Source: Candidatus Dormiibacterota bacterium (GTDB lineage: Bacteria > Chloroflexota > Dormibacteria > Aeolococcales > Aeolococcaceae). From it: 64,000 bases of DNA. The notes under the pieces were generated by a model, which did no database searches, was not told the DNA's origin, and saw only the letters and a program-made list of their open reading frames with translations. Below, piece after piece: positions 12,316-42,858 of this stretch (positions are counted from its first letter, which is position 1; each line of letters begins with the position of its first letter). The DNA is taken from assembly GCA_019245575.1 (NCBI GenBank), contig JAFARE010000009.1, forward strand, positions 17,403-81,402. Reading direction: 5' to 3'. The position numbers were made by a program, and so were the translations under genes.

Positions 12316-13464
12316 ATGGACGTGCGTCTCAACGAAGAGCAGATGATGATCCGGCAGACGGTGCGAGACCTCGCGCGCTCGCGCATCGCGCCGCGCGCCG
12401 CCGAGATCGACCGCACCGGCGAGTTCCCCTGGGACGTCGTCGATCTCTTCCGGCAGCACGACCTCTTTGCGCTGCCGTTCCCGCCGGAGCACGGCGGACT
12501 GAGCGGGAGCGCGCTGACGCTCAACGTCGCCATCGAGGAGCTGGCCAAGGTGTGCGCCACCAGCGCGCTCATCCTCGCGGTGCAGGCGCTCGGCGCGTAC
12601 CCCGTGATGATCGCGGGCACCGACGAGCAGAAGCAGCGTCTGCTGCCCGACCTCGCCGCCGGCAAGAAGCTCGCGGCCTACGCGCTCAGCGAGCCCGGCG
12701 CAGGCAGCGACCCCGCCGGAATGGTGACTCGCGCCGAGCGGCATGGCGATGAGTACGTCATCACCGGCAGCAAGATCTGGATCACGGACGGCGGCGTGGC
12801 CGACACCATCACCGTGTTCGCCAAAACAGACCCGGCGGCGCGATCCAAGGGCGTGTCCGCGTTCGTGCTCGAAGACGCGCAGCAGCTCAAGGGTTTCCAG
12901 GCGAGCACGATCCACGGCAAGCTCGGCATCCGCGGCAGCAACACGGCCGAGCTGCAGCTCGACGAAGTTGTCGTGCCGGCGGCGAACCTGCTCGGCGAGG
13001 AGGGCGACGGATTCCGCATAGCGATGCGTGTGCTCGACCGGTCGCGACCCGGCGTGGCAGCGCAGGCGCTGGGCATCGCACAGGGCGCGCTCGACTACGC
13101 GGTGGGTTACGCGCGCGAGCGCAAGCAGTTCGGCAAGTCGATCGGGGAGTTCCAGGGCATCCAGTTCATGCTCGCCGACATGGAGGCGCAGACCGCGGCG
13201 GCGCGCGCGATGGTGTACTGGGCCTCGCAGCTGATCGACGACCACAGCCCCGAGGTCACGCACCATGCGGCCATCGCGAAGCTGCTGGCCGGCGACGCGG
13301 CGATGAAGGTCACCACCGACGCCGTGCAGATCCTCGGTGGGTACGGCTACGTGAACGAATACCCCGTCGAACGGATGATGCGCGACGCCAAGATCACGCA
13401 GATCTACGAGGGAACCAACCAGATCCAGCGCGTGGTGATCGCGCGCGACCTCCTGCGCGCCTGA
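12316..13464 (+). CDS. acyl-CoA dehydrogenase
   Basis: 382 aa. YALSEPGAGSDPAG...TQIYEGTNQIQRVVIARDLL. Confidence 0.9.
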   Translation: MDVRLNEEQMMIRQTVRDLARSRIAPRAAEIDRTGEFPWDVVDLFRQHDLFALPFPPEHGGLSGSALTLNVAIEELAKVCATSALILAVQALGAYPVMIAGTDEQKQRLLPDLAAGKKLAAYALSEPGAGSDPAGMVTRAERHGDEYVITGSKIWITDGGVADTITVFAKTDPAARSKGVSAFVLEDAQQLKGFQASTIHGKLGIRGSNTAELQLDEVVVPAANLLGEEGDGFRIAMRVLDRSRPGVAAQALGIAQGALDYAVGYARERKQFGKSIGEFQGIQFMLADMEAQTAAARAMVYWASQLIDDHSPEVTHHAAIAKLLAGDAAMKVTTDAVQILGGYGYVNEYPVERMMRDAKITQIYEGTNQIQRVVIARDLLRA

Positions 13465-13467
13465 CGT

Positions 13468-14436
13468 TCAGCGAGTCGTCAGCACCACCTTGCCGGTGGC
13501 TCGCCGCTCCTCGAGCATGCGGAGCGCGCCCGCGGCGTCCGTCAGCGGCAGCGCCGCGCCGACGACGGGTGCCACCACACCGCGCTCGATCATGGTGTCC
13601 AACTCACTCTGCGTGGACGCGAACAGCTCTGGTTCCACACCGAGAAAGGCGCCCCATGCGGCGCCCACCACCTCGACGTTGCGGAACAGCAGGCGGTTCA
13701 CCTGCACGGACGGGATGCGCCCCTCGGTGAAACCCACGACGATCAGCCTGCCCTCCGGCGCGAGGCAGCGGAGGCTGGCGTCGAAGCGGTCGCCGCCGAC
13801 GGGATCGAGGATCACGTCCACCCCGCGTCCGCCGTCGAGCTCGCGCAGCGCGCTCACCCAGTCGCCCGATGCGTCGACGACGTCGTCGGCGCCCGCGTTG
13901 CGGGCAATCTCCGCCTTCTCAGCGCTGGACGTCACCGCGATGACGCGTGCGCCGAGGCCGCGCGCCACCTGCACCGCCGCGGTGCCCACACCGCCGGCGG
14001 CGCCGTGCACCGCCACGCACTCGCCCTCGCGCACCCGGCCCCGGCGCGCCAGCGCGAAGTGCGCGGTGTGGTAGTTCATCAGGAAGCCGCCGGCGGCCTC
14101 GTCGCTCATGCCGCCGGGGACGCGCACGGTGAGCGCCGGATCGGCGGCGGCGACGTCGGCGAAACCTCCGAGCCCGGTGAAGGCCATCACGCGGTCGCCC
14201 GTTGCGAAGCCCGAGTCCGGCGGAGCGCTGCGCACCGTGCCGGCGACGTCCACACCGGGGACGAATGGAAGCGGCGGCTTCATCTGGTACAGCCCCCGGC
14301 TGAGGAGCAGGTCGGGGAAGCTGACGCCGGCCACGGACACGTCGATGAGCACCCGCCCGTCGCCGCTCGGCGCATCGATGTCCACGAGGCGGAGGCCGCC
14401 GGGACCGTCGAGCGATGTCACCTGCTGCGCGCGCAC
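13468..14436 (-). CDS. NADPH:quinone oxidoreductase / zinc-type alcohol dehydrogenase family
   Basis: MDR fold with VAVHGAAGGVGTAAVQVARGLGARVIA. GTG at 14436 (VRAQQVTSLDGPGGLRLVD) gives a typical N-terminus; the upstream part of the track ORF is Cys/Trp-rich junk. Confidence 0.85.
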   Translation of the reverse strand: MRAQQVTSLDGPGGLRLVDIDAPSGDGRVLIDVSVAGVSFPDLLLSRGLYQMKPPLPFVPGVDVAGTVRSAPPDSGFATGDRVMAFTGLGGFADVAAADPALTVRVPGGMSDEAAGGFLMNYHTAHFALARRGRVREGECVAVHGAAGGVGTAAVQVARGLGARVIAVTSSAEKAEIARNAGADDVVDASGDWVSALRELDGGRGVDVILDPVGGDRFDASLRCLAPEGRLIVVGFTEGRIPSVQVNRLLFRNVEVVGAAWGAFLGVEPELFASTQSELDTMIERGVVAPVVGAALPLTDAAGALRMLEERRATGKVVLTTR

Positions 14437-16111: not shown

Positions 16112-17146
16112 GTGAAGATCGGGCTTCTCACCGGCGGGGGAGACGCCCCCGGTCTCAACGCAGCCATTCGCGCCGTGGGCCGGCGCGCCCTGCTCGGCGG
16201 CGACTCGCTGGCCGGCATTCGCAACGGGTGGGCGGGGCTGCTCGGCGACGGCGACATCGAGCCGATGGACCGGCCCATGTTCTCCGGCATCCTGCAGCTG
16301 GGCGGGACCGTGCTGGGCAGCTCGCGTGTCAACCCGATCAAGCGCGAGGGCGGCCTCGAGGAGGTGCTGCGCAACATCGACCGGCAGGGACTCGAGGCCC
16401 TGGTGGCGATCGGCGGTGATGACACGCTCAGTGTCGCCGCGTGGCTCGCTGATCGCGGGGCGCACGTTGTGGGCGTGCCCAAGACGATGGACAACGACCT
16501 CATGGTCACGGAGTACTGCATCGGCTTCGACAGCGCTGTGAGCGTCGTCGCTGAGGCGCTCGACCGCCTGCACACCACGGCGATGTCGCATCACCGTGTG
16601 ATGGTGCTCGAGGTGATGGGACGCGACACGGGCTGGGTCGGCGTGATGGGCGGGCTCGCCGGCGGCGCCGACATGATCATCATTCCCGAGTTCCCGGTCA
16701 CGGTGGACGAGGTGATCGAGCACCTCGACAAGCGCAGTGCCGCGGGAAGCGACTTCAGCATCATCGTGGTGACGGAAGGCGTCGAGATGGAAGGTCTGCG
16801 GGGCAAGGACGACGCCGGCGAAAAGCGGGACGCGTTCGGCCACGTGCAGCTGGGCCGGCGTGGGGTGGGCGAGACGCTGGCGCGCATCATCGAGGAGCGC
16901 ACCGGCCACGAGACGCGCGCCACGGTGCTGGGACACCTTCAGCGCGGCGGCTCGCCCTCTGCGTACGACCGCATCTGGGCCACGCGCGTGGGCGCAGCCG
17001 CATACGACCTGGTGCGCGGAAATCGCTGGGGCATGATGCCCGTGGTGCAATGCGGCGCGGTGGAGATCGCCAGGATCGCCGACGTGGTCGCCGAGCCACG
17101 GCGCGTCCCGCGCGACCTCTACGAGCTGGCACAGGTCTTCTACTGA
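16112..17146 (+). CDS. pfkA: 6-phosphofructokinase (GGDDT/PKT signature suggests a PPi-dependent type)
   Basis: KIGLLTGGGDAPGLNAAIRAV, AIGGDDTLSVA, VGVPKTMDNDL, MGRDTGW; GTG start. Confidence 0.9.
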   Translation: MKIGLLTGGGDAPGLNAAIRAVGRRALLGGDSLAGIRNGWAGLLGDGDIEPMDRPMFSGILQLGGTVLGSSRVNPIKREGGLEEVLRNIDRQGLEALVAIGGDDTLSVAAWLADRGAHVVGVPKTMDNDLMVTEYCIGFDSAVSVVAEALDRLHTTAMSHHRVMVLEVMGRDTGWVGVMGGLAGGADMIIIPEFPVTVDEVIEHLDKRSAAGSDFSIIVVTEGVEMEGLRGKDDAGEKRDAFGHVQLGRRGVGETLARIIEERTGHETRATVLGHLQRGGSPSAYDRIWATRVGAAAYDLVRGNRWGMMPVVQCGAVEIARIADVVAEPRRVPRDLYELAQVFY

Positions 17147-18843
17147 CCAGATTCCGCAAGCTTCGCTCGGCCTCGCTGCTCGCGCTGGGCGGATACGCTG
17201 CGGCTGCGCTGGTGCTGACCGCGCCCGCGTGGCTCCATGCGACGACGTCGTGGCCGGGCAACGTCGGCGATCCGTACAAGTTCATGGACTGGCTCGCATG
17301 GATTCCGCACGCCGTCGCTCATTTTCAGAATCCATTCTTCAGCAGCGCCGTCGATGCGCCGCGTGGCGTGAACCTGGCGTGGGAGACGACCGTTCCCCTG
17401 GGCGCAATCCTCGTCTGGCCGGTCACCGCGACGCTCGGTCCGATAGCCGCGTACAACGTCTGGCTGCTGGTCGCCCTGACGCTCGACGGCTGGTGCACGT
17501 ACGTGTGGCTGCGCCGCCATGCTCGCGGCGCGGCGGCCTTCCTCGGCGGCCTCACATTCGCGCTCGGCCCGTATCTGGTGACGCACAGCTACAACCACCT
17601 CAACCTCGTGTCCGCGTTTCCGATTCCGCTCCTGTTCCTCGTCATTGACCGATTCGTCGCCGGTTCGCTCACGTGGTGGAGAGCCGGGATGGCGGCAGGC
17701 GTGCTCGCCGCCGCACAGCTCTATCTGGCCGAAGAGCTGCTCGCTCTGGCCGCGATCGGACTGGTGGCGGCGCTGTTGGTTGCACTTCCATCGCACCCGC
17801 CGACGCTTGTGCGTGTTGCCAGGGCTTCGGCCCTGGCGATCGTGACGTGCGCCGTGCTCGCCGGTCCGATGCTGGCCTTTCAGTTCTTCGGTCCACTGGC
17901 GGTGCACGGCGCGATCCAGCCAAGCGACGTCTACGTCACCGATCTGCAGAACCTTTTCGTTCCGACCAGGCTGACGTTGCTCCATCCCGGGACCGTGAGC
18001 ACAGAGCTGGCGAGTGCCTGGACCGGCAACCTCGGGGAACAGACGGGGTATGTGAGCATCCCGCTGCTGCTGCTGACCGCCTACGCGCTGTGGCGGTGGT
18101 GGAGGGAACCACTCGTGCGCGTCGTTGGTGGCGCGTCGTTGCTGCTGCTGGTGCTGAGCCTGGGCCCCCATGTTCATGTGGGCGGCTCGACGTCGATACC
18201 TCTTCCCGGTCTCATCCTGATGCGGCTGCCGGTGGTGGACCACATGCTGCCCGCGCGGCTCTCGCTGATTGCCGCGATGGGCCTGGCCCTGCTGCTGGCG
18301 CTGACGCTGGATCGGACCGTGCTCGCATCGCCGCGCCGAGCGGTGACGGGCAGCGTGCTGGGTGTGCTCAGCGTGATCGCGCTCATTCCCACGGCGCCCA
18401 TCCCGACGTCGACGACCGACGTGCCCGCCTACTTCACCGCAGACGACGGTGCTCGCGCGCTGCCCAGGGGGACCGTCGCGCTTGTGCTGCCGTACATCGA
18501 CGACGGCGGCGCAACAGCGGTGCCGATGCTCTGGCAGGCTGAGTCCGACTTCCATTACTCCATGGTCGACGGCCTGGCCATCACGGTCGCGCCGAACGGT
18601 CACTCAGCATTCCTCGTCGACAGCCCGCTCCGCTCTGCGTTGCACGACATCCAGGTGACGGGCAAGCCACCGCCTGAGACAGACGATCTGAAGCGGACCC
18701 TCGACGCCGTCCTCAATGGCGACCACGTGTCGTTGATCATCGTCGGCCCCATGCCGAATCGCGGCGCCGCCGAATCCTTCGTGAGCTGGCTGACCGGCTC
18801 GCCGCCGCAGCACTCGTCCGGGGTCAGCATCTGGCGGTGGTGA
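17050..18843 (+). CDS. large polytopic membrane protein, function unassigned (possibly a GT-C/YfhO-like envelope glycosyltransferase)
   Basis: About 12 or more hydrophobic helices followed by a C-terminal soluble domain. Start is uncertain. ATG 17050 overlaps pfk by 97 nt. The next canonical in-frame start, GTG 17212, would delete the RFRKLRSASLLALGGYAAAALVL signal-anchor. A CTG at 17143 forms a CTGA overlap. Confidence 0.6.
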   Translation: MRRGGDRQDRRRGRRATARPARPLRAGTGLLLTRFRKLRSASLLALGGYAAAALVLTAPAWLHATTSWPGNVGDPYKFMDWLAWIPHAVAHFQNPFFSSAVDAPRGVNLAWETTVPLGAILVWPVTATLGPIAAYNVWLLVALTLDGWCTYVWLRRHARGAAAFLGGLTFALGPYLVTHSYNHLNLVSAFPIPLLFLVIDRFVAGSLTWWRAGMAAGVLAAAQLYLAEELLALAAIGLVAALLVALPSHPPTLVRVARASALAIVTCAVLAGPMLAFQFFGPLAVHGAIQPSDVYVTDLQNLFVPTRLTLLHPGTVSTELASAWTGNLGEQTGYVSIPLLLLTAYALWRWWREPLVRVVGGASLLLLVLSLGPHVHVGGSTSIPLPGLILMRLPVVDHMLPARLSLIAAMGLALLLALTLDRTVLASPRRAVTGSVLGVLSVIALIPTAPIPTSTTDVPAYFTADDGARALPRGTVALVLPYIDDGGATAVPMLWQAESDFHYSMVDGLAITVAPNGHSAFLVDSPLRSALHDIQVTGKPPPETDDLKRTLDAVLNGDHVSLIIVGPMPNRGAAESFVSWLTGSPPQHSSGVSIWRW

Positions 18844-18856
18844 GCAGGGTCGTCGC

Positions 18857-19030
18857 GCTGCGGGGTCCTGCCGCCTCAGGGAACCCTCGCCGTCCTGCGC
18901 AGGATTCCACCCCAGGTCTTCGGATGCGCCCAAGGACTCTCGTGGTGATGCGGGCGCGCGTGACCGTCTGACCTGGGTCCCGGAATCCTGCTCCGGCCGG
19001 CGCTGCCCCCTAAGGCGTCACCCGCGCAGC
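18857..19030 (-). repeat. copy A of an unclassified structured intergenic element (candidate ncRNA / 3'UTR element or MITE-like repeat)
   Basis: The reverse complement aligns with 24151-24339 and 61374-61571 (core GCGCCGGCCGGAGCAGGATTCCGGGACCCAGGTCAGA...CACGAGAGTCC...AGACCTGGGGTGGAATCCTGCGCAGGACGGCGAGGG). It folds as a long rod closed by GCTGCGGGG/CCCGCGCAGC. Confidence 0.8.
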
Positions 19031-19050: not shown

Positions 19051-20082
19051 CTACGCGGGCGACCAAGCCGGGGGTGACGTGGCGTCGAGGTCGAGGTTCT
19101 GCGTCACCTGCTTCGGCGGTTTCGGCGTCAGGCCTGCGGCACCGTCGATCCACCAGAGCTGGAAGTGTCCCGTCGCATCAGCGGGCGCGTAGTACACGAG
19201 GCTGCGCCCGTCCGGCGACCACTGCGGCGAGGAGCAGAGGCAGTTGTCGACCAGCGTCCGGGGTGTGCCCAGCGTGGTGCCCGTCAGCGGCGCCACCTCC
19301 AGCCGCGTGCTCTGCAATCCGGTGCCGCCGGTGCAGACCATCGCAAGCTGCGTGCCATCGGGAGACACGGCCGGCTGGCCGCAGTCGTCGGTGTCGTTCG
19401 TGAGGTACACCGGGTCCGCGCGCGCCCGGGTATCGATTGCGAGACGCGAGTACACGTTGCCGCCACTGATCTCGTACTTGGAGTAGAGCAGCGCGCCGCC
19501 GGGAAGCGGCACCGGGGCGACGTCACCACCGGTGTAGCTGAACGGGTCGGTCCACTGTTTCGACGCGATCTTGCCGGACAACGGACCCGCCCAGACCGCG
19601 AACTCGATCTCGTAGCTCTGGATCGACTTGGGCGAGTCGTAGCTGACGTACAGCGTCTGCCCGTCGGCGCTGAGGCGGGGCCAGAACATCCAGTGGTTGA
19701 GCTGGATGGTCGAGCTCGTCGTGGCGTTGTGGCTCAGCTGGTTGATCACGGTCCCGGCCACACCGTCGATTTGGAACACCTCCGAGTACGCGGCCGTGCG
19801 CATCACCGCCACGATGTCGTTGGTGCCGGGCACGATTGCGGGCTGCATCCACGTTCCGTTCTTGGGCAGGCGCAGCGCAGTGAAGGTGCCCCTGTTCAGC
19901 TTGTACATCACGCCCTGCTGGGCCACGTAGATCGTCCCGGGCAGCACGAACGCCGGCTTGCTCACGGTCGGCGTCGACGCTTCCGCGACGTGCGCCTTGC
20001 GCAGCGCGAAGAACCGGTTCACGCCGAAGGCGAACGCGCCCATCAGCGCCAGGAGAACGACGATCGTGAGTGCCCGCCTCAC
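19051..20082 (-). CDS. TolB-like beta-propeller (PD40/WD40-like repeat) protein with N-terminal membrane anchor
   Basis: N-terminal TM helix (ALTIVVLLALMGAFAF). Repeated ...SPDG..L.. / SADGQTLYV / SPDGTQLAMV / SPDGRSLVYY blades. GTG start, 10 nt downstream of the LCP gene. Confidence 0.7.
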   Translation of the reverse strand: MRRALTIVVLLALMGAFAFGVNRFFALRKAHVAEASTPTVSKPAFVLPGTIYVAQQGVMYKLNRGTFTALRLPKNGTWMQPAIVPGTNDIVAVMRTAAYSEVFQIDGVAGTVINQLSHNATTSSTIQLNHWMFWPRLSADGQTLYVSYDSPKSIQSYEIEFAVWAGPLSGKIASKQWTDPFSYTGGDVAPVPLPGGALLYSKYEISGGNVYSRLAIDTRARADPVYLTNDTDDCGQPAVSPDGTQLAMVCTGGTGLQSTRLEVAPLTGTTLGTPRTLVDNCLCSSPQWSPDGRSLVYYAPADATGHFQLWWIDGAAGLTPKPPKQVTQNLDLDATSPPAWSPA

Positions 20083-22126: not shown

Positions 22127-23799
<1,673 letters not shown>

Positions 23800-23821
23800 T
23801 CCGCGTCACGCCCAGCGTCTG

Positions 23822-24139
23822 ATGCCGAACACGTTCACCCGTGTGCCGGTGCGCCCGGTGCCGCCGCTCGGGCCCGCGGCCCGCCTGTGCGTGCCGGTGG
23901 CGGACGCGTTCATGGTGCTCATGCTCTCGCGCCCGTCGACCAGGTCGCTGCGCACGACGTGGGTCACGCCCGCAACGCTCGGGCTCGCGGTCGCACTGAC
24001 ACTGATCCTCGCCGCCGCGGCCGTGGAGCTCATCGTCAGCGGGACGATCCTGCGCGTGATCATCGGCGCGATCCTGCTCGTCGCAGCGATGGGTCCGCTC
24101 GCAGTGTCGGTCGTCGGGACCGAGCAGCGTTTGCGCTGA
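23822..24139 (+). CDS. hypothetical small membrane protein
   Basis: High GC3 ORF with two predicted TM helices (LGLAVALTLILAAAAVELIV; VIIGAILLVAAMGPLAVSVV). No recognisable family and an uncertain start. Confidence 0.4.
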   Translation: MPNTFTRVPVRPVPPLGPAARLCVPVADAFMVLMLSRPSTRSLRTTWVTPATLGLAVALTLILAAAAVELIVSGTILRVIIGAILLVAAMGPLAVSVVGTEQRLR

Positions 24140-24150
24140 GTTGGCGCACC

Positions 24151-24339
24151 AAGGCGCTTTCGCTCGGGTGGTGCCGTGGGGGGAGGCGCCGGCCGGAGCA
24201 GGATTCCGGGACCCAGGTCAGAGGGACACGCGTCTTCGCATGAGCACGAGAGTCCTCGGGCGCATCCGGAGACCTGGGGAGAATCCTGCGCAGGACGGCG
24301 AGGGGTCCCCACGGCGACAGGACCCGAGCGAAGCGCCTT
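24151..24339 (+). repeat. copy B of an unclassified structured intergenic element (candidate ncRNA / 3'UTR element or MITE-like repeat)
   Basis: Helices P1 24151-24168/24323-24339, P2 24172-24181/24307-24316, P3 24198-24206/24281-24289 and P4 24212-24219/24271-24278. The apical domain carries the invariant CACGAGAGTCC. Confidence 0.8.
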
Positions 24340-24344
24340 AGCCT

Positions 24345-24563
24345 TCAGCCTCTTAGGCGTAGCACCAGGTTGATCACGACCGTCAGCACGATGCTGACGA
24401 CGATGCACGTGACGATCGGGAAGGCGACCGAGACGTTGCCGCGTGACACCGCGATGTCGCCGGGGAGGCGGCCGAGCCCGAGGCGCGCGCCGACGATGAG
24501 CACCGCGCCGGCCAGCGCGAGCGCGAGCCCCGTGATCAGGAGCAGCTTGCCGATGTCGCTCAT
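24345..24563 (-). CDS. DUF2905 family small membrane protein
   Basis: 72 aa: MSDIGKLLLITGLALALAG...LGRLPGDIAVSRGNVSVAFPIVTCIVVSIVLTVVINL. The GRLPGDI motif between two TM helices is typical of DUF2905. Confidence 0.7.
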   Translation of the reverse strand: MSDIGKLLLITGLALALAGAVLIVGARLGLGRLPGDIAVSRGNVSVAFPIVTCIVVSIVLTVVINLVLRLRG

Positions 24564-24619
24564 GCCTCGTGGCCGAGTCTAGGACGGTCTCTGCTACAGT
24601 CCGGTCGACGAATCCGCTT

Positions 24620-24648
24620 CAAGCAGGTCCAGAGAGGCCGGCAAGGGA
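24620..24648 (+). promoter_or_regulatory. PyrR-binding RNA hairpin in the pyrB leader
   Basis: CAGGUCCAGAGAGGCCGGCAAGGGA matches the PyrR binding-loop consensus (R-UCCAGAGAGG-Y...AAGG). Downstream, GCCCTC (24673-24678) can pair with GAGGGC (24698-24703), which contains the pyrB Shine-Dalgarno. Confidence 0.75.
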
Positions 24649-24711
24649 TCGCGGCGCCGCACTGCGCGGCGCGCCCTCGTCCGCGCCGAGTGGGCTGGAG
24701 GGCTTTTCCGG

Positions 24712-25641
24712 ATGACGGTGACGGCGGTCGGCCGCAGGGTCCTCGAGCACGTCATCAGCAGCGAGCAGTTCGGCCGTGAGCTGCTCGACTCCCTCTTCGC
24801 GCGAGCCGCCGACCTGCAGGACGTCCGCGACGAGCGCCTGAAGGGCAGGATCATGGCCACGCTGTTCTACGAGCCGAGCACGCGCACGCGGCTCAGCTTC
24901 GAGTCGGCGATGCTGCGCCTGGGCGGGTCGGTGCTCGGCACCGAGGCGGCGCGCACGTTCTCCAGCGCCATCAAGGGCGAGACGCTGGAGGACACGATCC
25001 GCATGGTCTCGACGTACGCAGACGTCATCGTGCTGCGTCATGACGAGATGGGCGCGGCGGCGCGCGCGGCGCGCGTCGCGTCCGTGCCCGTGATCAACGC
25101 GGGCGACGGTCCCGGCGAGCACCCCACCCAGGCGCTGCTCGATCTGTTCACCATCGAACGGGAGCTGGGCCGCGTCGACGGCGTGCGCGTCGCGCTGTGC
25201 GGCGACCTGCGCTTCGGACGCACCGCCCGCTCCCTGGCGCTGCTGCTGTCGCTGTACCCGGACGTGCGGCTGGTGTTCGTCGCTCCCGACGTGGTGCAGG
25301 TGGGCGGCGACATCCTCGCGCGACTGGATGAGCGGGGCATCCGGTACACGCTCGCGTCGCAGCTGGACGACGTGGTCAGCCAGGTGGACGTCGTCTATCA
25401 GACGCGCGTGCAGAAGGAGCGCTTCACCGACCCGCATGAGTTCGAGCAGGCGCGCAGCGCCATCCGCATCGACGCGACCGTCATGCGCCGCCTCGATCCA
25501 CGTGCGATCGTGATGCATCCGCTGCCGCGCGTGGACGAGCTCGCCACCGAGGTCGACTCCGACCCGCGCGCCGCGTACTTCCGCCAGGCGGCGAACGGCG
25601 TCGCCATCCGCATGGCGTTGCTGGAGCTGCTGCTGGCATGA
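24712..25641 (+). CDS. pyrB: aspartate carbamoyltransferase catalytic subunit
   Basis: FYEPSTRTRLSFE, HPTQALLD, and the HPLPR region (MHPLPRVDEL). Confidence 0.95.
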   Translation: MTVTAVGRRVLEHVISSEQFGRELLDSLFARAADLQDVRDERLKGRIMATLFYEPSTRTRLSFESAMLRLGGSVLGTEAARTFSSAIKGETLEDTIRMVSTYADVIVLRHDEMGAAARAARVASVPVINAGDGPGEHPTQALLDLFTIERELGRVDGVRVALCGDLRFGRTARSLALLLSLYPDVRLVFVAPDVVQVGGDILARLDERGIRYTLASQLDDVVSQVDVVYQTRVQKERFTDPHEFEQARSAIRIDATVMRRLDPRAIVMHPLPRVDELATEVDSDPRAAYFRQAANGVAIRMALLELLLA

Positions 25642-26213: not shown

Positions 26214-27544
26214 ACGTGATCCTCCGCGGCGTGCGCGTGATCGACCCGCTCGCGGGTGTCGACCGCGCGCCTCAGGACGTGTGGATCGAGGCCGGTCGCA
26301 TTCGCGCGCTTGACGACCGCATCGAGGCCGGCGGCGTTCCGGTGATCGACTTCACGCGCGCCGGCGGCGAGCCCGTGGTGCTCTGCCCCGGCTTCATCGA
26401 TCTGCACGTGCATCTGCGCGACCCCGGCGACTCCGGCGCGGAGACGACGGCGACCGGCGCGCGCGCTGCCGCGGCCGGCGGTTTCACGCACATCGTCGCG
26501 ATGGCCAACACCGATCCCCCACACGACTCGCCCGAGCTGCTGCGCGACGCGATCGAGCGCTCGCAGAACGCCGCCGTGCGCGTGATGCACGTGGCGGCGA
26601 TGACGCACGGCCTCGACGGTGCGGCGCTTGTCGATGTCGAAGCATGCATCGGCGCGGGCGCGGTCGCGCTCAGCGACGACGGGCGCAACGCGGCCCCGGG
26701 CGCGCTGCTGTCGGAGGCGCTGGCGCGCGCCGGTGAGCTCGGCAGGCCGGTGCTGGTGCACCCCGAGGACGAGGCGGCGATCTCGCGGTTCAACCCCTTC
26801 GGTGGGGTGACGCGCTGTTCGGACCGGCCGCCGGAGACGGAGGTGGCCGCCGTGAAAGCAGCGGTCAAGGCGCTCGCCTCCACGGCCGGCGGCAGGCTGC
26901 ACCTGCAGCATCTCTCGGCCGCGGGTTCGCTGGAACCGCTGCGCCTGGCGCGCCAGCGCGGGCTAACCATCACGGCGGAGGTGACGCCCCACCATCTCGC
27001 GCGCTGGGCCGCGATGTCGCCTCCGGAGCCGGCTTCCCTGCGCAAGGTGAATCCGCCGTTGCGCAGCGCGAACGATCGCGCGGCGATGCTGCAGGCGCTG
27101 CTCGACGGCACCATCGATGCCATCGCCACCGACCATGCGCCGCACCGCTCCGACGAGAAGACGAACAACTACGACTCGTCGGCGCCGGGGATGATCGGGC
27201 TCGAGACAGCCCTCGCGGCGTGCATCACGCTCGGCGACCTCGCCGGCCGCCGCCTGCCCGTGTTGGTGGAGCGCCTGACGGCGGGACCGCATCGAGTGCT
27301 CGGCGAGGCGAGCGGTGTGAAGGAGCCGCGCGTGCGTGTCGGCGAGGTCGCGGACATCGTGGTGTTCGATCCCGACGCCGGCTGGACGGTGAGCGACGAC
27401 ACGCTCTTCTCGCGCTCGCGCAACACACCCTGGCTGGGCACGGAGCTGCGCGGCCGCGTGCTGCTCACCGTCGCACACGGACGCGTGGTGCACAGCCTGG
27501 ACGCGCGCATCCCGGTGGCGGACAGGGAGCCGGCCGGTGTCTGA
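26210..27544 (+). CDS. pyrC: dihydroorotase
   Basis: FIDLHVHLRDPG metal-binding motif and DHAPH motif (ATDHAPHRSDEK). GTG 26210 forms a GTGA overlap with the pyrR stop. Confidence 0.9.
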   Translation: MNVILRGVRVIDPLAGVDRAPQDVWIEAGRIRALDDRIEAGGVPVIDFTRAGGEPVVLCPGFIDLHVHLRDPGDSGAETTATGARAAAAGGFTHIVAMANTDPPHDSPELLRDAIERSQNAAVRVMHVAAMTHGLDGAALVDVEACIGAGAVALSDDGRNAAPGALLSEALARAGELGRPVLVHPEDEAAISRFNPFGGVTRCSDRPPETEVAAVKAAVKALASTAGGRLHLQHLSAAGSLEPLRLARQRGLTITAEVTPHHLARWAAMSPPEPASLRKVNPPLRSANDRAAMLQALLDGTIDAIATDHAPHRSDEKTNNYDSSAPGMIGLETALAACITLGDLAGRRLPVLVERLTAGPHRVLGEASGVKEPRVRVGEVADIVVFDPDAGWTVSDDTLFSRSRNTPWLGTELRGRVLLTVAHGRVVHSLDARIPVADREPAGV

Positions 27545-30500
27545 GCGGCGGGGCGTGCTCGCGCTCGAGTCGGGTGCGACGTTCGAGGGCGTGCTCTTCG
27601 CCGCACCGCCGGACGGCGCCGTCCACGGCGAGGTGGTCTTCAACACCTGCATGACGGGCTACCAGGAGGTGCTCACCGACCCGTCGTACGCCGGCCAGAT
27701 GGTGGTCATGACCTACCCGCTTATCGGGAACTACGGATGTCGCGACGACACCGCTGAGTCGTACCGAGTGCACAGCCGCGCGCTGCTGGTGCGCGAGCTG
27801 TCACCGGACATCGGTCACGGCCGCGCCGAGCGGTCGCTGGAGGAGGAGCTGGCGCGCGCCGGTGTCGCGGGCATGCGTGGTGTGGACACTCGCGCGTTGA
27901 CACGCCACCTGCGCGACCGAGGGACGCTGCGCGGCGTCATCGCCGCTGCGGACGCGGCATCGCACGCGGAGCTCGTTGCGGCTGCCCAGTCGGCGCCGCA
28001 CGTGAGCGACGAGGACCTGGTCGGCGAGGTGTCGCTGCGCGAGCCCTGGGTGCGCTTCGCGGAGCGCCTCGACCCCACGCTCCATCGCGGTGTCGAGCTG
28101 GCAGGGACGGCTGACGCGTTCCGCGGCACGCGAGTCGTGGTGGTGGACTACGGCGTGAAGCGCAACCAGCTTCGCGCGCTGTGCAGCCGCGGTGTCGACG
28201 TGATCCTTGTGCGGCAGGACGCGCGCCTCGACGACGTGATGCGCCACGAGCCCCACGGCGTCATCCTGTCCAACGGCCCTGGTGATCCGTCGCGCCTGCC
28301 TCACGCAGTGCAGCTCTGCCGCGAGCTGCTCGACCGGCGAGTGCCGATGCTCGGCATCTGCCTGGGACACCAGATCCTCGGGCAGGCAGCGGGGGCGTCG
28401 ACGTCGCGGCTGAAGTTCGGCCACCACGGCGGCAACCACCCGGTGCGCGACGACGCCGGCGGCGCCGTCTATGTCACGTCGCAGAACCACGAGTTCCAGG
28501 TGGATGCGGCATCGTTGCCTCACAACTCCGGCTGGTACGTCAGCGAGCGCAACCTGAACGACGGCTCCGTCGAAGGGCTCCGCCACCGCGAGCTGCCCGC
28601 CTTCAGCGTCCAGTACCATCCGGAAGGAGCACCAGGCCCCCAAGATCGCGCCGGCGTCTTCGACGAATTCCTGGAGATGTGCGTCGATGCGCGGGGGTGG
28701 GCCATGCGTCGGCGGCGAGTTCCGGGTGCGAGCGAGGACCGCGCCAGCATTGCCGGAGGCGATGGCGCGGGACGAGCCGCAGCCCGGGTGTCTGAGCAAG
28801 ACGATGCATGGCCCACCCCCGCGGAGACCACATCGTCCGATTCGGCGAAAACGCCGGTCGATAAGCCGCAGTGCGTACTCGTCATCGGTAGTGGGCCCGT
28901 CGTCATCGGTCAGGCCGCGGAGTTCGACTACGCGGGCACGCAGGCGTGCAAGGCCTTGCGCGAGGAGGGCGTGCGGGTCGTGCTCGTGAACAGCAACCCG
29001 GCGACGATCATGACCGACGACTCCTCAGCGGACGCGGTGTACGTCGAGCCGCTGACCCTCGACGTGCTGGAGCGTGTCATCGAGCAGGAGCGCCCCGACG
29101 GGCTGCTGGCGACGCTCGGCGGCCAGACCGGGCTGAACCTCGCGGTGGCGCTCGACGACGCGGGGATCCTGAGGAAGCACGGCGTGCGTGTGCTGGGCAC
29201 ACCGCTGAGCGCGATCCGCTCGGCGGAGGACCGCGAGCTGTTCAAGGAGCTGTTGCGATCGATCGGCGAGCCGGTGCCGACGTCGCGGACGGTTTCCACG
29301 CTGGCGGAGGCGCGCGCATTCCGTGAACGCGAGGGTTTGCCGCTGGTGGTGCGGCCGGCGTTCACGCTGGGCGGCACGGGCGGCGGACTCTGCGAGACGG
29401 ACGAGCGGTTTCTCGAGATCGTTGCCGCCGGTCTCGCCGCGTCGCCGATCAACCAGGTGCTGGTGGAGCGGTCGCTCGCCGGCTGGCGTGAGATCGAGTA
29501 CGAGGTGATGCGCGACGCAGCCGGCACGTGCATCACCGTCTGCAACATGGAGAACCTCGACCCGATGGGCGTGCACACGGGCGACTCGATGGTGGTCGCT
29601 CCATCGCAGACGCTCACCGACCGCGAGCACCAGCAGCTGCGCAGCGCAGCCCTGCGCATCATCAGCGCGCTGGAGATCGCGGGCGGTTGCAACGTGCAGT
29701 TCGCGCTGGCGCCGGACTCGCACGAGTACCACGTCATCGAGGTCAACCCTCGCGTGTCGCGGTCCTCCGCGCTGGCCTCGAAGGCCACGGGACATCCCAT
29801 CGCTCGCGTTGCGGCGAAGATCGCCGCCGGGCGGCGCCTCGATGAGATTCCCAACGCGGTCACGGGCAAGACGTGCGCCGCATTCGAGCCCGCCCTCGAC
29901 TACTGCGTGGTGAAGATCCCGCGCTGGCCGTTCGACAAGTTCCCCGACGCGGATCGGCGGCTGGGCACGCAGATGAAATCGACCGGTGAGGTGATGGCCA
30001 TCGAGCGGTCGTTCGAGGCGGCGTTCAGCAAGGCACTCCGGTCGCTCGAGCAGACGCCGCCGGACCCGTCGCTCCTGCACGAGCCGGTGCTGGTGGACGT
30101 CGCCAACGACCGGCGCGCATTCGCGATCCTGGAGGCGCTGCGCGGCGGCGAGGACCCGGTGGCGGTCGCCGGGCGCAGCGGCATCGGCGCGTGGTTCCTG
30201 CGCCGGCTCGCCGCCATCGTCGAGTGCGAGGAGCGCCTCCGGTGGAACGGCCTCGACGACGACGCGCTGCGCATGGCCAAGCGGTATGCGCTGAACGACG
30301 CGCGCATCGCATCGCTCACGGGAACCACGGACGCGGCCGTGCGGGCGCGACGGGGCGAGCTGCGGCTCCAACCGGTGTACAAGTGCGTCGACACCTGCGC
30401 TGCGGAGTTCGAGGCGGCGACACCGTACTTCTACTCGACGTTCGAGGTGGAGAACGAGAGCCGTCCTGCAGCGGGCGGCCGTGAATCCGTCGTCGTCGTG

Positions 30501-32123
30501 GGCAGCGGTCCCATCCGCATCGGCCAGGGGATCGAGTTCGACTACTGCAGCGTGCAGGCAGCCGCATCGCTGCGCGCGCACGACGTCGACTCCGTGATGG
30601 TGAACAGCAATCCCGAGACGGTGAGCACCGATTTCGACTGCAGCTCGCGCCTCTATTTCGAACCCCTCGACGAGGAGGCGGTGGCCGCGGTCATCGAGGA
30701 GGAGCGCGCCGGTGGCGCCGTGGTGCAGTTCGGCGGCCAGACCGCCGTGAACCTCGCCGCACCGCTGCACCGCCGCGGGGTGCGCGTGCTCGGCACGCCC
30801 GTCGACGCCATCGACACCGCCGAGGATCGCCGCGCGTTCGAGGCGCTGATGCGTGAGCTGGAGATCCCGCAGCCGCACGGCGCCGCCACCCTGGACCTGG
30901 CGGAGGCGATGGCAATCGGCGAGCGCATCGGCTACCCGGTGCTGGTGCGGCCGTCGTTCGTCCTCGGCGGACGCGCCATGGAGATCGTGCACGGGCCCGA
31001 GTCGCTGCGGCGTTACATGGACGCGGCCATGGCGGCGCTGCCGACGGAGGGTGGCGAGCGGCGCGGCGCGGTGCTCATCGACCGCTATCTCTTCGGGACC
31101 GAGCTGGACGTGGACGCCGTCGCCGACGGCGAGACCGTCGTGATTCCCGGCCTCATGGAGCACGTGGAACGCGCCGGCGTGCACAGCGGCGACTCGATGG
31201 CCGCCTATCCCGCGCGCATGCTGAGCGACGAGGTGCGCAACCGCATCGTGGAGCACACGGTGAGCATCGCCCGCGCGCTGGGTGTGCGCGGGCTCTGCAA
31301 CATCCAGTTCGTCGTCTACCGCGGTGTGCCGCACGTGCTCGAGGTCAATCCGCGCGCCTCGCGCACGGTCCCGTTCCTCAGCAAGGTGACCGGCGTTCCC
31401 ATGGTGGAGCTGGCCACCCGCGTTATGCGCGGCGAGACGCTGCTCGACCTGGGCTGGACCACGGGACTCGTGCCCGCCCGCCCGCTCGTCGCCGTAAAGG
31501 CGCCCGTCTTCTCCACGGTCAAGCTCACCGAGGTGGACACCGCGCTGGGTCCGGAGATGAAGTCCACCGGCGAGGTGATGGGCATCGATGTCGACCTCGG
31601 CGCCGCGCTGGAGAAGGCATTTCTCGCCGCGCTCGGCGGCGTCCCCCTGGGTGGCGGCGCGCTGTGCAGCGTGGCCGACGTCGACAAGGCGGACGCCCTG
31701 CCGATCCTGGCCCAGCTCAGCGCGCTGGGCTTCACGCTCTACGCCACCGCGGGCACCGCTCGCGCCCTGGCCGACGCCGGCGTGAGCGCGGTGCCGGTGG
31801 GGAAGATCGGGCACGGCCGGCCCAACGTCATCGATGTGATCGAGGAGGGGCGCGTGTCGCTGGTGGTGAACACGGTGTCGCACCTGGGCACGGACGAGAT
31901 GGAGTACGGCGGCGACGGCCGCGCGGCGATGGCTGCGGGCCGCACGGTGAAGGACGGTTACCGCATCCGCCTCGCGGCGGAGCAGCGGCGTGTTCCCTGC
32001 TGCACGTCGCTGGACACCGCGGCGGCGCTGGTCGATGCGATCAGCCGTCACCTCGGCGGGGCCAGTGTGCGCGTCGCGCAGGTGCGCTCCTACCGCGAGG
32101 GCCTGGTGAGCGCGACCTCATGA
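27537..32123 (+). CDS. carAB: carbamoyl-phosphate synthase with small (CarA) and large (CarB) subunits fused in one 1528-aa ORF
   Basis: aa 1-~386 are CarA (GICLGHQ Cys, VQYHPEGAPGP His/Glu). aa ~387-445 form a low-complexity linker. aa 446-1528 are CarB (VLVIGSGPVVIGQAAEFDYAGTQ..., two ATP-grasp halves, MGS-like tail). There is no in-frame stop between the domains. Confidence 0.85.
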   Translation: MSERRGVLALESGATFEGVLFAAPPDGAVHGEVVFNTCMTGYQEVLTDPSYAGQMVVMTYPLIGNYGCRDDTAESYRVHSRALLVRELSPDIGHGRAERSLEEELARAGVAGMRGVDTRALTRHLRDRGTLRGVIAAADAASHAELVAAAQSAPHVSDEDLVGEVSLREPWVRFAERLDPTLHRGVELAGTADAFRGTRVVVVDYGVKRNQLRALCSRGVDVILVRQDARLDDVMRHEPHGVILSNGPGDPSRLPHAVQLCRELLDRRVPMLGICLGHQILGQAAGASTSRLKFGHHGGNHPVRDDAGGAVYVTSQNHEFQVDAASLPHNSGWYVSERNLNDGSVEGLRHRELPAFSVQYHPEGAPGPQDRAGVFDEFLEMCVDARGWAMRRRRVPGASEDRASIAGGDGAGRAAARVSEQDDAWPTPAETTSSDSAKTPVDKPQCVLVIGSGPVVIGQAAEFDYAGTQACKALREEGVRVVLVNSNPATIMTDDSSADAVYVEPLTLDVLERVIEQERPDGLLATLGGQTGLNLAVALDDAGILRKHGVRVLGTPLSAIRSAEDRELFKELLRSIGEPVPTSRTVSTLAEARAFREREGLPLVVRPAFTLGGTGGGLCETDERFLEIVAAGLAASPINQVLVERSLAGWREIEYEVMRDAAGTCITVCNMENLDPMGVHTGDSMVVAPSQTLTDREHQQLRSAALRIISALEIAGGCNVQFALAPDSHEYHVIEVNPRVSRSSALASKATGHPIARVAAKIAAGRRLDEIPNAVTGKTCAAFEPALDYCVVKIPRWPFDKFPDADRRLGTQMKSTGEVMAIERSFEAAFSKALRSLEQTPPDPSLLHEPVLVDVANDRRAFAILEALRGGEDPVAVAGRSGIGAWFLRRLAAIVECEERLRWNGLDDDALRMAKRYALNDARIASLTGTTDAAVRARRGELRLQPVYKCVDTCAAEFEAATPYFYSTFEVENESRPAAGGRESVVVVGSGPIRIGQGIEFDYCSVQAAASLRAHDVDSVMVNSNPETVSTDFDCSSRLYFEPLDEEAVAAVIEEERAGGAVVQFGGQTAVNLAAPLHRRGVRVLGTPVDAIDTAEDRRAFEALMRELEIPQPHGAATLDLAEAMAIGERIGYPVLVRPSFVLGGRAMEIVHGPESLRRYMDAAMAALPTEGGERRGAVLIDRYLFGTELDVDAVADGETVVIPGLMEHVERAGVHSGDSMAAYPARMLSDEVRNRIVEHTVSIARALGVRGLCNIQFVVYRGVPHVLEVNPRASRTVPFLSKVTGVPMVELATRVMRGETLLDLGWTTGLVPARPLVAVKAPVFSTVKLTEVDTALGPEMKSTGEVMGIDVDLGAALEKAFLAALGGVPLGGGALCSVADVDKADALPILAQLSALGFTLYATAGTARALADAGVSAVPVGKIGHGRPNVIDVIEEGRVSLVVNTVSHLGTDEMEYGGDGRAAMAAGRTVKDGYRIRLAAEQRRVPCCTSLDTAAALVDAISRHLGGASVRVAQVRSYREGLVSATS

Positions 32124-33849: not shown

Positions 33850-34142
33850 TGCTGCTCGGCGCGATCGTCCTCTGCTTCCTCGTGCTCCTCGTGCTGATCA
33901 CCGACCGCGCGGGATCACGTCTCTTTCACGGCGACTCCCACAGCGTCTTCTATCGCTGCGAGGCGTGCGGGCTGCGCTATCCCCGCCGCGAGATCGCGGA
34001 CCCAGGGCTCCGCATCTGCCCCGCCGGGCATCCGATCGCACTCGAGGAATCGCACACGGCCGCCGGTGTGGTGGGAATCTTCGCGTGCATCGGGTTTCTC
34101 GGCGTGGCGCTCGTGCTCTTCATCATCGGTGTCGGGCACTGA
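33849..34142 (+). CDS. hypothetical small membrane protein with a Cys/His zinc-ribbon-like loop
   Basis: 97 aa: TM helix (LLGAIVLCFLVLLVLI), then YRCEACGLRYPRREIADPGLRICPAGH, then a second TM helix (VVGIFACIGFLGVALVLFII). TGATG overlap with pyrD. Confidence 0.55.
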   Translation: MLLGAIVLCFLVLLVLITDRAGSRLFHGDSHSVFYRCEACGLRYPRREIADPGLRICPAGHPIALEESHTAAGVVGIFACIGFLGVALVLFIIGVGH

Positions 34143-34154
34143 GCAGGAGCTGGC

Positions 34155-34760
34155 TCACAGCCAGCCGTTGGACTGTGCTTGGCGCACCGCCTCGATTCGG
34201 TTGCGCGCGCCGGTCTTCTGTATCGCCGACGAGAGGTAGTTGCGCACCGTCCCCTCGGAGAGGAACAGCCGCGCGGCGATCGTCGCGATGGTCGAACCGT
34301 CCACGGCAGCGCCGAGCACGTCGCGCTCCCGCTCCGTGAGCGGATTGGGTCCCGCAGTGAGCGCTGCCACAGCGAGCACCGGGTCGATGACGCGCTCGCC
34401 CGCCACCGCGCGGCGGATCGCGGCGGCGAGCTCCTCCGCTGGGCCGTCCTTGACGATGAAGCCGGAGGCACCGGCGTCCATCGCGCGGCGCAGATAACCG
34501 GGACGGCCGAACGCCGTGAGCATGAGGATCGTGCACTGCGGCAATGCGTCGTGCAGCGCCGCTGCGGCGGCGATGCCGTCCAGCCCGGGCATCTCGATGT
34601 CGAGCAGCGCGACGTCCGGCTGCGCGCGCCGCGCGGCGCTCATCACCTCGTCCCCGCGGCCCACCTGGGCCACCACGTCGATGTCGTCCTCGAGCGCGAG
34701 CAGCGTGGACAGTGCGCCGCGCACCATGCCCTGGTCCTCGGCGATGAGGACGCGGATCAC
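34155..34760 (-). CDS. NarL/LuxR-family response regulator
   Basis: REC domain (VLIAEDQGMVR...DVALLDIEMPGLDG) plus a LuxR HTH (LTERERDVL...IAARLFLSEGTVRNYLS). Confidence 0.9.
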   Translation of the reverse strand: MIRVLIAEDQGMVRGALSTLLALEDDIDVVAQVGRGDEVMSAARRAQPDVALLDIEMPGLDGIAAAAALHDALPQCTILMLTAFGRPGYLRRAMDAGASGFIVKDGPAEELAAAIRRAVAGERVIDPVLAVAALTAGPNPLTERERDVLGAAVDGSTIATIAARLFLSEGTVRNYLSSAIQKTGARNRIEAVRQAQSNGWL

Positions 34761-39277: not shown

Positions 39278-39288
39278 GCCGCGATATT

Positions 39289-42290: not shown

Positions 42291-42851
42291 ATGAATGCGA
42301 TCGCGCTGCTGAGGGACGACCACCGGCGGGTGAAGCAGCTGTTCCGCGAGTACGAGCGGCTCGGCCCGCGCGCGAAGCGCGCAAAGCAGCGGATCGTGCA
42401 GGAGTTCAGCCGCGAGCTGGCGGTGCACTCCAACATCGAGGAGGTCGTCTTCTACCCACAGGTGCGCGAGCACGTGCAGCGCGCGGAGGATGAGGTGCTC
42501 GAGGGACTCGAGGAGCACCACATCGTCAAGTGGACGCTCAGCGAGCTGGAGAAGATGCGTCCTGAGGACGAACGCTACGACGCGAAGGTGCGCGTGCTGA
42601 TGGAGAGCGTGCGCCACCACATCGACGAGGAGGAGCGCGAGCTCTTCCCCCGGGTGCGCGCCGCGGTCTCACGCGCCGAGCTCAACGAGATGGGCGAAAA
42701 GCTGCAGCAGGCGAAAGCGGCGGCGCCGACCCGCCCCCATCCGCGCGCCCCCGACGAGCCGCCGGCGAACGTCGTCGCCGCTGCGATCTCGGCGCCGATG
42801 GACGTGGTCATGGACGGGGCCAAGCACGCGGTGTCGCGCGTCAGAGGCTGA
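42291..42851 (+). CDS. hemerythrin (HHE cation-binding) domain protein
   Basis: LLRDDHRRVKQLF...HSNIEEVVFYP...EEHH...VRHHIDEEERELFP. Confidence 0.85.
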   Translation: MNAIALLRDDHRRVKQLFREYERLGPRAKRAKQRIVQEFSRELAVHSNIEEVVFYPQVREHVQRAEDEVLEGLEEHHIVKWTLSELEKMRPEDERYDAKVRVLMESVRHHIDEEERELFPRVRAAVSRAELNEMGEKLQQAKAAAPTRPHPRAPDEPPANVVAAAISAPMDVVMDGAKHAVSRVRG

Positions 42852-42858
42852 TCCCCGG

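Follow-up and report, generated by a model that had tools for sequence, protein, structure and literature searches.

What is the rod-shaped segment at positions 24151-24339 of this Dormibacterota DNA: a structured RNA, or a piece of repetitive DNA that folds? The stretch we analysed, hereafter the window, is 64,000 nucleotides (nt) of contig JAFARE010000009.1 in assembly GCA_019245575.1. A preliminary description reported three intergenic copies of the segment, here called A (minus strand), B (plus strand, the reference copy) and C (plus strand), and took them to be an unrecognised family of structured elements selected as RNA. We arrive at a different reading, which we hold with moderate confidence: the copies belong to a new family of non-autonomous, quasi-palindromic, dispersed DNA repeats, which resemble REPINs (doublets of repetitive extragenic palindromic, or REP, sequences) and miniature inverted-repeat transposable elements (MITEs), sit at the apices of hairpins at gene ends and are kept paired by template switching. 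We read them as inserted repetitive DNA rather than as a conserved RNA gene because the core of the element is present or absent between relatives, and because it is known from one population only.

The core repeat, its copies and its insertion sites

The three segments lie where they had been placed and do share a core: about 165 nt can be aligned, with 79-85% identity among A, B and C and a mean column identity of 82%. The 18-mer GGATTCCGGGACCCAGGT has three exact occurrences in the window, against 0.02 expected, and scanning JGI metagenomes with it returned nine further distinct copies, all from two samples that contain this organism. The family thus comprises at least 12 sites and 12 distinct copies, 11 of them full-length. 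Aligning the full-length copies, which is how the core limits in Table 1 were set, gives a unit of 162-164 nt in 11/11 cases, running from CGGGTG to CAGGACCCG with a mean column identity of 91%. Its ends, CGGGT and ACCCG, are invariant, its basal ~20 bp pair imperfectly, and variation is greatest in the apical stem and in the outer part of helix 2. The repeat as first described therefore stands, but its limits do not, since the conserved unit is 162-164 nt long and the outermost helix (P1) is mostly site-specific flank. The predicted folding of each copy into a long rod was also borne out. Copy B forms a single long rod of -117.1 kcal/mol (z = -7.4), its reverse complement folds equally well (-116.4 kcal/mol, z = -9.0), and the consensus fold is one rod of six helices and 51 pairs in which standard pairs make up 96.2% of pair cells.

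Comparison of orthologous sites shows the core to be inserted DNA. In relatives with transglutaminase/TPR proteins of 88%, 79% and 73% identity, the spacer at the copy C site measures 10, 33-34 and 16 nt, respectively, and L055, L056/L058 and L059 all lack the core in this orthologous spacer. Because these short spacers lack the core, and because both coding ends at the site (C-termini in Table 1) are conserved in the core-less relatives, the window has gained ~193 nt here. The site between ccdA and the aconitase gene (ccdA-acn) is similarly polymorphic: L028 (1303-1567) holds a full core, and L054 (4733-4782), where the core is absent, has a plain 12-bp GC hairpin, 4 nt past the stop and with no T tract. 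In L052 (4739-4867) the site is taken up by a 9-bp mini-hairpin, CGGGTCCTG-loop-CAGGGCCCG, whose 9-mer is also that of the core terminus, and in L051 (4739-4938) by a rod of a different family.

As known, the repeat family is confined to one species-level population. Among 185,579 species-representative genomes, scanned with the 18-mer, 13 loci turned up, each a chance match of ~20 nt; plasmids and phages (blastn of the element) and viral contigs (18-mer scan) gave no matches; and nhmmer with three-copy and 11-copy profiles, run on the relatives' loci, revealed no diverged copies. Nor is the family one that Rfam already catalogues, which agrees with the preliminary description. Rfam 15 applied to the whole window at the gathering threshold gave 0 hits to any family, and applied to copy B ± 50 nt at E <= 10 it gave one spurious long non-coding RNA fragment (13.4 bits against 70). 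The Rfam search works on this genome, because the same library picks up a divergent thiamine pyrophosphate (TPP) riboswitch in the window with 50.7 bits. A literature search found no description of Dormibacterota repeat families, nor of a matching palindromic repeat family between convergent genes. The riboswitch itself (48723-48809, + strand; E = 1e-8) lies upstream of thiC (48865-50586); its score is just under the Rfam gathering score of 54.3, and it was therefore missed by the gathering-threshold scan.

The methylmalonyl-CoA mutase beside copy B has a 100% match in 'Candidatus Dormibacteraeota bacterium', and its close relatives all bear that name. An identical flanking protein is found in the NCBI metagenome-assembled genome GCA_019242035.1, in two ENA assemblies and in two JGI metagenomes, and in these five assemblies the DNA is 99.9% identical to the window and copy B 100% identical. 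This bears on whether the rods could be fold-back chimeras produced during assembly or amplification. Some amplification methods are known to generate inverted duplications, but we give this explanation almost no credence: the arms are diverged rather than perfect, and copy B with its flanks is identical in all five assemblies, which come from three pipelines and several samples. An assembly artefact was rejected because copy B is the same in these independent assemblies.

Site-specific flanks and conversion of the arms

Outside the core no sequence is common to the copies, yet the two flanks of each copy are complementary to one another, much as the preliminary description had claimed for the outermost helix. 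The 5' arm of copy B, for example, is absent from all other copies. When the core ends were clamped and 25-nt flanks folded for the 11 copies and for 110 cross pairs, own flanks had a mean of -33.3 kcal/mol, compared with -19.0 ± 4.5 kcal/mol for flanks taken from different copies, and in 8/11 copies own flanks paired better than all 110 cross pairs. The outer helix of copy A is only ~5 bp (CTGCG/GCAG), with flank complementarity not above chance, and that of copy C forms an inverted repeat with 24-nt arms (61373-61396 / 61549-61572) that are 92% complementary. We also aligned each 5' flank locally with the reverse complement of the 3' flank, again with the 110 cross pairs as control, and kept flank blocks only where the alignment beats that control. 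This is so in four copies (C, L023, L028 and L029), whose flanks match over 21-89 aligned nt at 74-90%: 38/47 identities from -50 to -4 in copy C, 50/62 across 60 nt in L023, 66/89 out to 120 nt in L028, and 19/21 in L029. In places the flank arms overlap stop codons and coding ends.

Several simpler accounts of this pairing were tried and rejected. Palindromy is not generic at the gene junctions of this genome: ordinary window junctions are not palindromic, the complementarity of five convergent pairs with 3-12-nt spacers falling within the cross-pair background while the rod sites lie above its 99th percentile. Two other junctions, 17146-17200 and 61903-61953, also exceed the 99th percentile (14.0 and 13.5 against 8.3 ± 2.2) and may be small palindromes. 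Neither the 123-aa open reading frame (ORF) and the DUF2905 gene beside copy B nor the two genes flanking copy C are inverted duplicates, as neither pair has any protein similarity, and the CcdA C-terminus in L028 was not made by flank duplication, being conserved in orthologues down to 63% identity. We also rejected the notion that distal (> ~50 nt) flank complementarity is always real, given that permissive alignments contain 94 transversions against 31 transitions. A separate observation concerns three ccdA-acn lineages, in which the end of ccdA (its last ~28 codons) shows partial complementarity to the start of the aconitase gene (ribosome-binding site plus first ~16 codons), in the blocks ACCGTCGCC/GGCGACGGT and CGTCACCT/AGGTGACG.

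Our conclusion is that the outer helix consists of DNA particular to each site and has a mixed origin, an older hairpin accounting for one part and inverted duplication for the other. In the sequence of events that we propose, the core would have been inserted at the apex of a site-specific gene-end hairpin, and the outer helix would be a hairpin predating the insertion, an inverted copy of the flank, or both. Such an inverted copy could arise when DNA synthesis folds back or switches template, an event that the core would nucleate through its strong tendency to form hairpins; the same process, as quasi-palindrome correction, would keep the rod paired and produce the apparent compensatory substitutions.

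The compensatory substitutions that had been noted between copies are real, 6/51 pairs having changes on both sides. The covariation score is 0.103, as opposed to 0.068 ± 0.008 in shuffles (0/500 shuffles reach it), and sliding the partner by 1-3 columns leaves at most 0.053. It is important to note in reading these figures that the copies are closely related and that two of the events are templated multi-base conversions, which is why the substitutions do not serve as proof of selection on RNA. In the 5' arm of L026, GGA has become TGC, a change of three adjacent bases that makes a conserved internal loop perfectly complementary to the 3' arm, and the 3' arm of L035 now reads GGCTCC, the exact complement of its own 5' arm. 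One-step multi-base arm changes of this kind are a hallmark of template switching, which creates hairpins, maintains or repairs them, and mimics compensatory evolution (PMC8794818; for quasi-palindrome template switching see also PMC13100816 and PMC7202029).

The window contains a second rod (55827-56107; z = -9.2 as DNA), unrelated to the repeat, which lies between glnB (PII protein, 55496-55867) and a ferredoxin gene whose true start is at 56094 (MTYVV...). Its outer arms are complementary over 25 nt at 92% and over 16 nt at 100%. The right arm holds the ferredoxin 5' untranslated region (UTR) and start, ATGACGTACGTCGT, and the left arm is an inverted copy of that 5' UTR and start codon, read as a C-terminal tail of PII past residue 107, the end of the Pfam P-II domain. 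An inverted flank copy can explain this rod and a pre-existing terminator hairpin cannot, which gives the duplication its polarity. The apical motif of the second rod, GCCGCGGCGGTCCCCGCGGC, recurs in rods of L051 (4739-4938) and, as the reverse complement, in L047 (11675-11860), both from Dormibacterota. A generic search for long rods by terminal complementarity was noisy in this 70% GC DNA, and only its top cases were usable.

The repeat also has a counterpart in another genus. In L046 (GCA_963777285.1; mutase 88% identical), two spacers orthologous to the copy A and copy B sites contain rods of ~150 nt, which we spotted by eye in the relatives' loci and then aligned. The basal match to this sister family reads CGGGTGACGGCGCGGGGGGAAGCG..CCGGC.GGA on the 5' side and GGCGAGGGKTCCCC......CAGGACCCG on the 3' side, and the termini are as in the window family (CGGGTGACGSCG...GGCGAGGGKTCCC...CAGGACCCG). 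Between the genera the basal 45 nt (5') and 35 nt (3') are conserved and the interior ~80 nt are unrelated. Downstream of the 343-aa gene the distance from stop to core is 26-27 nt in both genera and the junctions are similar, TCTCGGCTGCG being followed by CGGGTGACG in one and TCGCGGCTCCGG by CGGGTGACG in the other. Two histories would explain this: occupation of the copy A site before the two genera diverged, with later replacement of the interior, or two hits on an ancestral hairpin. After the mutase gene, L047 has a different palindrome and L050 a 6-nt spacer. Because the basal stems are conserved even in the sister family of another genus, the basal ~35-45 bp of each side would be the likeliest module for recognition or propagation by whatever copies the element, with the interior specific to each family.

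Genomic setting, strand and competing explanations

Table 1. Repeat copies, their arms, adjacent genes and related features (window coordinates, except for L046)
Feature	Positions	Strand	Details
Copy A conserved core, 163 nt	18862-19024	-	From 11-copy alignment
Copy B conserved core, 162 nt, CGGGTG...CAGGACCCG	24165-24326	+	From 11-copy alignment
Copy C conserved core, 162 nt	61392-61553	+	From 11-copy alignment
Apical-loop motif CACGAGAGTCC, copy B	24245-24255	+	Last 10 bases invariant in 11/11 copies
Copy B 5' arm of outer helix, AAGGCGCTTTCGCT	24151-24164	+	Pairs 13/14 with 24327-24339
Copy B 3' arm of outer helix, AGCGAAGCGCCTT	24327-24339	+	Ends 5 nt before DUF2905 stop
Copy C 5' palindrome arm	61365-61391	+	Starts just after TAG stop of transglutaminase/TPR gene
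Copy C 3' palindrome arm	61554-61580	+	Includes stop (61568-61570) and last codons of 111-aa gene
Gene convergent on copy A	17050-18843	+	597 aa, membrane-protein-like ORF, no Pfam hit
Gene ending 26 nt from 5' end of core A	19051-20082	-	343 aa, PD40 repeat
ORF upstream of copy B	23768-24139	+	123 aa, no Pfam hit, GC content at third codon positions (GC3) 0.86
Gene convergent on copy B	24345-24563	-	DUF2905, 72 aa, PF11146 E = 8e-22
Gene upstream of copy C	60558-61364	+	Transglutaminase-like + TPR, 268 aa, C-terminus ...ASRLRAFLN
Gene convergent on copy C	61568-61903	-	111 aa, C-terminus ...LVWLLAFxIGAR
Sister-family rod in L046, copy B site	11675-11882		
Sister-family rod in L046, copy A site	6706-6911		
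Other convergent junctions	4999-5008, 13464-13468, 34142-34155, 39277-39289, 42851-42859, 47198-47213		3-12 nt between stops, or 16-nt overlap; no hairpin

At every examined site the core copies occupy a short non-coding gap directly 3' of a gene. All three window copies lie between convergent ORFs, as had been described, but this does not hold as a general rule, since five extra copies are in Pfam-checked sites between tandem genes (MnmA, FtsK/UDG, CcdA/aconitase, OtsA/MerR and RNase Y). Nor do all the window elements reach the convergent stop, as had also been claimed: that of copy B ends 5 nt before the TCA stop at 24345-24347. Apart from the three repeat-bearing spacers, no convergent pair in the window is separated by ~200 nt, and the remaining convergent pairs are tightly packed (Table 1). 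The 123-aa and 597-aa ORFs beside copies B and A, which have no Pfam hit and a GC3 of 0.81-0.86, are both absent from the otherwise syntenic regions of L046, L047 and L050, and the rods lie at the edge of these lineage-specific insertions.

The preliminary description rested its case for RNA-level selection, with the annotated strand as sense, largely on pairs that are G-U in this orientation only. Counted by cells the bias is there, with 40 G-U cells at 12 pair positions and 4 A-C cells at 3 positions, but as independent events it is weak: in paired columns C>T changes number 9 and G>A changes 5, compared with 3 and 6 in unpaired columns, and the G-U excess stems largely from two ancestral G-U pairs and one apical helix. 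The flank arms show no strand bias (14 G-T against 17 A-C mismatches). In 4/5 of the Pfam-verified tandem sites the proposed sense strand is antisense to both neighbours, and so the neighbours' transcripts usually carry the other strand; a count of 4/5 is not significant, and we rejected a significant orientation rule. A scan for sigma-70-type promoters around copy B found none, although such a scan may not suit this phylum. Since the event bias is weak, the orientation mostly antisense, and neither a promoter nor a terminator was found near copy B, we regard the strand argument as no more than suggestive, and it would hold just as well for single-stranded DNA. Together with the insertion behaviour and the arm conversions, this leaves the claim of RNA-level selection unsupported.

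Several observations nevertheless weigh against our reading of the family as dispersed DNA repeats kept paired by template switching. Every one of the 11 cores is more stable on the proposed sense strand, by 0.7-13.2 kcal/mol (mean 7.8), and the 10-nt run ACGAGAGTCC of the apical loop (columns 82-91) is invariant in a region where 29/48 of the surrounding columns vary. The invariance of columns 38-55 is by construction, the extra copies having been found by exact 18-mer search; the invariant loop motif shows some constraint, and the non-random variation and the folding advantage point to a constraint on one strand for which a purely selfish DNA palindrome would have no need. The usual marks of a mobile element are also missing. 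At the junctions of the 11 copies we found inverted rather than direct repeats and hence no target-site duplication, duplication of a palindromic CG dinucleotide being possible; this also speaks against a plain MITE with terminal inverted repeats (TIRs) and target-site duplications, the alternative that the preliminary description had set against its own proposal. The TIRs have no clear extension past CGGGT/ACCCG, and, the unit being palindromic throughout, no separate TIR can be marked off within it. No transposase, REP-associated tyrosine transposase (RAYT) or other mobilising gene was found among the 46 window ORFs scanned with Pfam, and mobilisation would presumably be in trans. At the copy C and ccdA-acn sites, relatives without the core have some of the distal complementarity too, from which, and from the conservation of the CcdA C-terminus, it follows that some of the outer pairing predates insertion; the template-switch origin of the flank arms is one that we infer rather than observe. 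Finally, a scan of 23700-24800 on both strands for terminators with a U-tract found none, the flanks are without T runs, and no U-tract, the mark of a classical intrinsic terminator, follows the hairpin.

Some of these observations are what would be expected of a multi-copy structured non-coding RNA, in which the annotated strand would be transcribed as a small RNA or as a domain of a 3' UTR, the apical loop CACGAGAGUCC would be functional, binding a protein or pairing with another RNA, and selection on folding would keep the rod. The high proportion of standard pairs, the six double-change pairs and the covariation above shuffles, the spread of G-U over A-C positions, the greater stability of the sense strand in all 11 copies and an invariant 10-nt motif inside a variable apical stem all fit such an RNA. 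We nonetheless consider it unlikely, given that the core comes and goes between close relatives and is known from one population, that the sense strand is antisense to both neighbours at most of the verified tandem sites, and that the sigma-70-type scan found no promoter-like site. Moreover, copy B is just as stable when its opposite strand is folded, multi-base conversion of an arm accounts for two of the 'compensatory' events, neither the substitution spectrum nor the flank arms have a significant strand bias, and a shuffle control of this kind is known to be exceeded by related unstructured sequences. The tolerance of G-T on one strand and the invariant loop would suit single-stranded DNA as well as RNA, and the rod might instead be a single-stranded-DNA or cruciform recognition site for a host or element protein, such as a Y1/HUH transposase (of the RAYT or IS200/IS605 kind), a structure-specific nuclease or recombinase, or a nucleoid protein. 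Basal stems that are conserved across genera around differing interiors are in keeping with recognition of this sort, as is the mini-hairpin of L052, which could be a solo unit or an excision remnant. Set against this are the lack of a candidate enzyme among the 46 window ORFs, the lack of a consistently present GTAG or CGTC end tag, and the non-significant 4/5 orientation bias, and we think a recognition site of any of these kinds quite unlikely.

The position of every copy directly 3' of a gene raises the further question of whether the rods are simply the gene-end terminator hairpins of this lineage, made family-like by convergence or gene conversion and never mobile. Empty sites in L054, L050 and L059 can indeed hold small GC hairpins without a U-tract, and two sites are occupied by rods in both genera. 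However, 162 nt at 85-91% identity with sharp limits at 12 unrelated sites is beyond convergence, most convergent pairs in the window have spacers of 3-12 nt and no hairpin, and the copy C spacer of the closest relative is 10 nt long; presence and absence of the core weigh heavily here, and make this explanation very improbable. Our preferred reading remains that of an inserted, quasi-palindromic DNA repeat at hairpin apices, maintained by template switching.

Related repeat systems and significance for Dormibacterota

The closest parallels are with REPINs, the RAYT-associated REP doublets of Pseudomonas fluorescens SBW25 (PMC3337134; bioRxiv 10.1101/2021.07.10.451892). These too are non-coding, dispersed and ~90-200 bp long. 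In REPINs two conserved inverted units around a hairpin-forming middle make one long imperfect hairpin, a layout that the basal stems and interior of our repeat may match. REPINs also persist vertically (same references), which would fit the occurrence of rods at the same two sites in two genera. They differ in that we see neither a RAYT in the window nor a GTAG tag, and in that the basal units here (~35-45 nt) are not obvious REP palindromes of 20-40 bp. Furthermore, REPIN spacers vary between all copies, whereas the interior here is conserved within the genome, and the self-complementary, site-specific sequence lies outside our repeat and not inside it.

REPs are imperfect palindromes of 20-40 bp with an unpaired GTAG (or CGTC) end tag, and are found downstream of ORFs, between convergent or unidirectional genes (PMC3733652); in the 3' UTR they act as partial terminators and mRNA stabilisers (bioRxiv 10.64898/2026.03.23.713779). 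With the REP/BIME sequences of enterobacteria and the GTAG/CGTC super-families our elements share GC-rich hairpins and a position just 3' of ORFs, in the 3' UTR, the three convergent and five Pfam-verified tandem sites each being beside a stop codon. They differ in having a unit 4-8 times longer (162 nt against 20-40 bp), which is a continuous rod with conserved internal loops and is untagged: GTAG is absent at both core ends, and CGTC occurs in some copies only (GGCGTCAGG), in a variable column. Wherever a neighbouring gene is transcribed, the element would form a very stable 3'-UTR hairpin. Because REPs occupy the same kind of position and have the effects just described, this hairpin probably limits read-through and protects the 3' end, as a side effect or a secondary benefit.

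The bacterial MITEs (Correia/NEMIS, ERIC, RUP, SMAG and RU-1/2/3; PMC3184786, PMC2229807) are of the same size class and are likewise dispersed, biased towards intergenic DNA, able to fold back as RNA, and present or absent between relatives. Here, by contrast, we found no target-site duplication, the exact TIR is only 5 bp, the flanks are inverted and not direct, and no parent insertion sequence (IS) is known for the core. Class C group II introns insert at terminators. IS elements insert into REPs (PMC1525189), and our core likewise lies at the apex of a site-specific hairpin; the ccdA-acn spacer, where each of three lineages has its own palindromic insert and a fourth has a plain hairpin, is a parallel. 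Such hairpin-targeting elements differ in encoding their own enzyme and in being far larger, and our repeat has no enzyme or intron features. Template-switch mutagenesis (PMC8794818; PMC13100816; PMC7202029) accounts for the arm changes in L026 and L035 and for outward-lengthening inverted copies such as that of the PII/ferredoxin rod. It is, however, a mutational process and not an element family, and could not alone carry a 162-nt core to new sites.

Two further observations were made in the window. A palindrome of 134 nt (28690-28823), with 22-nt arms that are 95% complementary, lies ~385 codons into a fused carA-carB ORF (27537-32123), about where the small chain would be expected to give way to the large one; L046 also has a flagged palindrome (16603-16736), again 1153 nt from the start. 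The window palindrome has the look of a palindromic linker that is translated. Among housekeeping genes there is also a type IV secretion coupling protein gene (37697-39277, + strand; TraG/VirD4-like, T4SS-DNA_transf E = 5e-47), which may be the remnant of an integrated conjugative element, and beside it an ORF of 351 aa (39289-40344) that has no Pfam hit.

Given the window family, its sister family and the second, unrelated rod family, the genomes of Dormibacterota, an uncultured soil phylum, carry REPIN-like palindromic repeats. The traits that set these repeats apart are a long and uniform unit (162-164 nt), a position at the hairpin apex, and palindromy that extends into the flanks and coding ends. 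For annotation they call for caution, as such rods resemble structured-RNA genes and give false covariation, and they can alter gene termini, for example by adding a tail to a PII protein. They also offer a natural case for studying the spread of palindromic repeats and the upkeep of their pairing. Should the elements work as 3'-end hairpins, they would form part of how transcripts end in a genome nearly without spacers between convergent genes.

There is a bolder version of this picture, which we regard as a long shot: the rods would be either transposase-free hairpin modules, in effect palindrome parasites, or a new multi-copy RNA or single-stranded-DNA effector with the loop CACGAGAGUCC as its active site. 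As palindrome parasites they would spread between gene-end hairpins by inter-locus template switching at stalled forks, with the conserved basal stems serving as microhomology, and would palindromise their flanks outwards, at times altering the C-termini and 5' ends of the genes beside them. If either were true, several families of rods would be turning over at the same gene-end sites in Dormibacterota.

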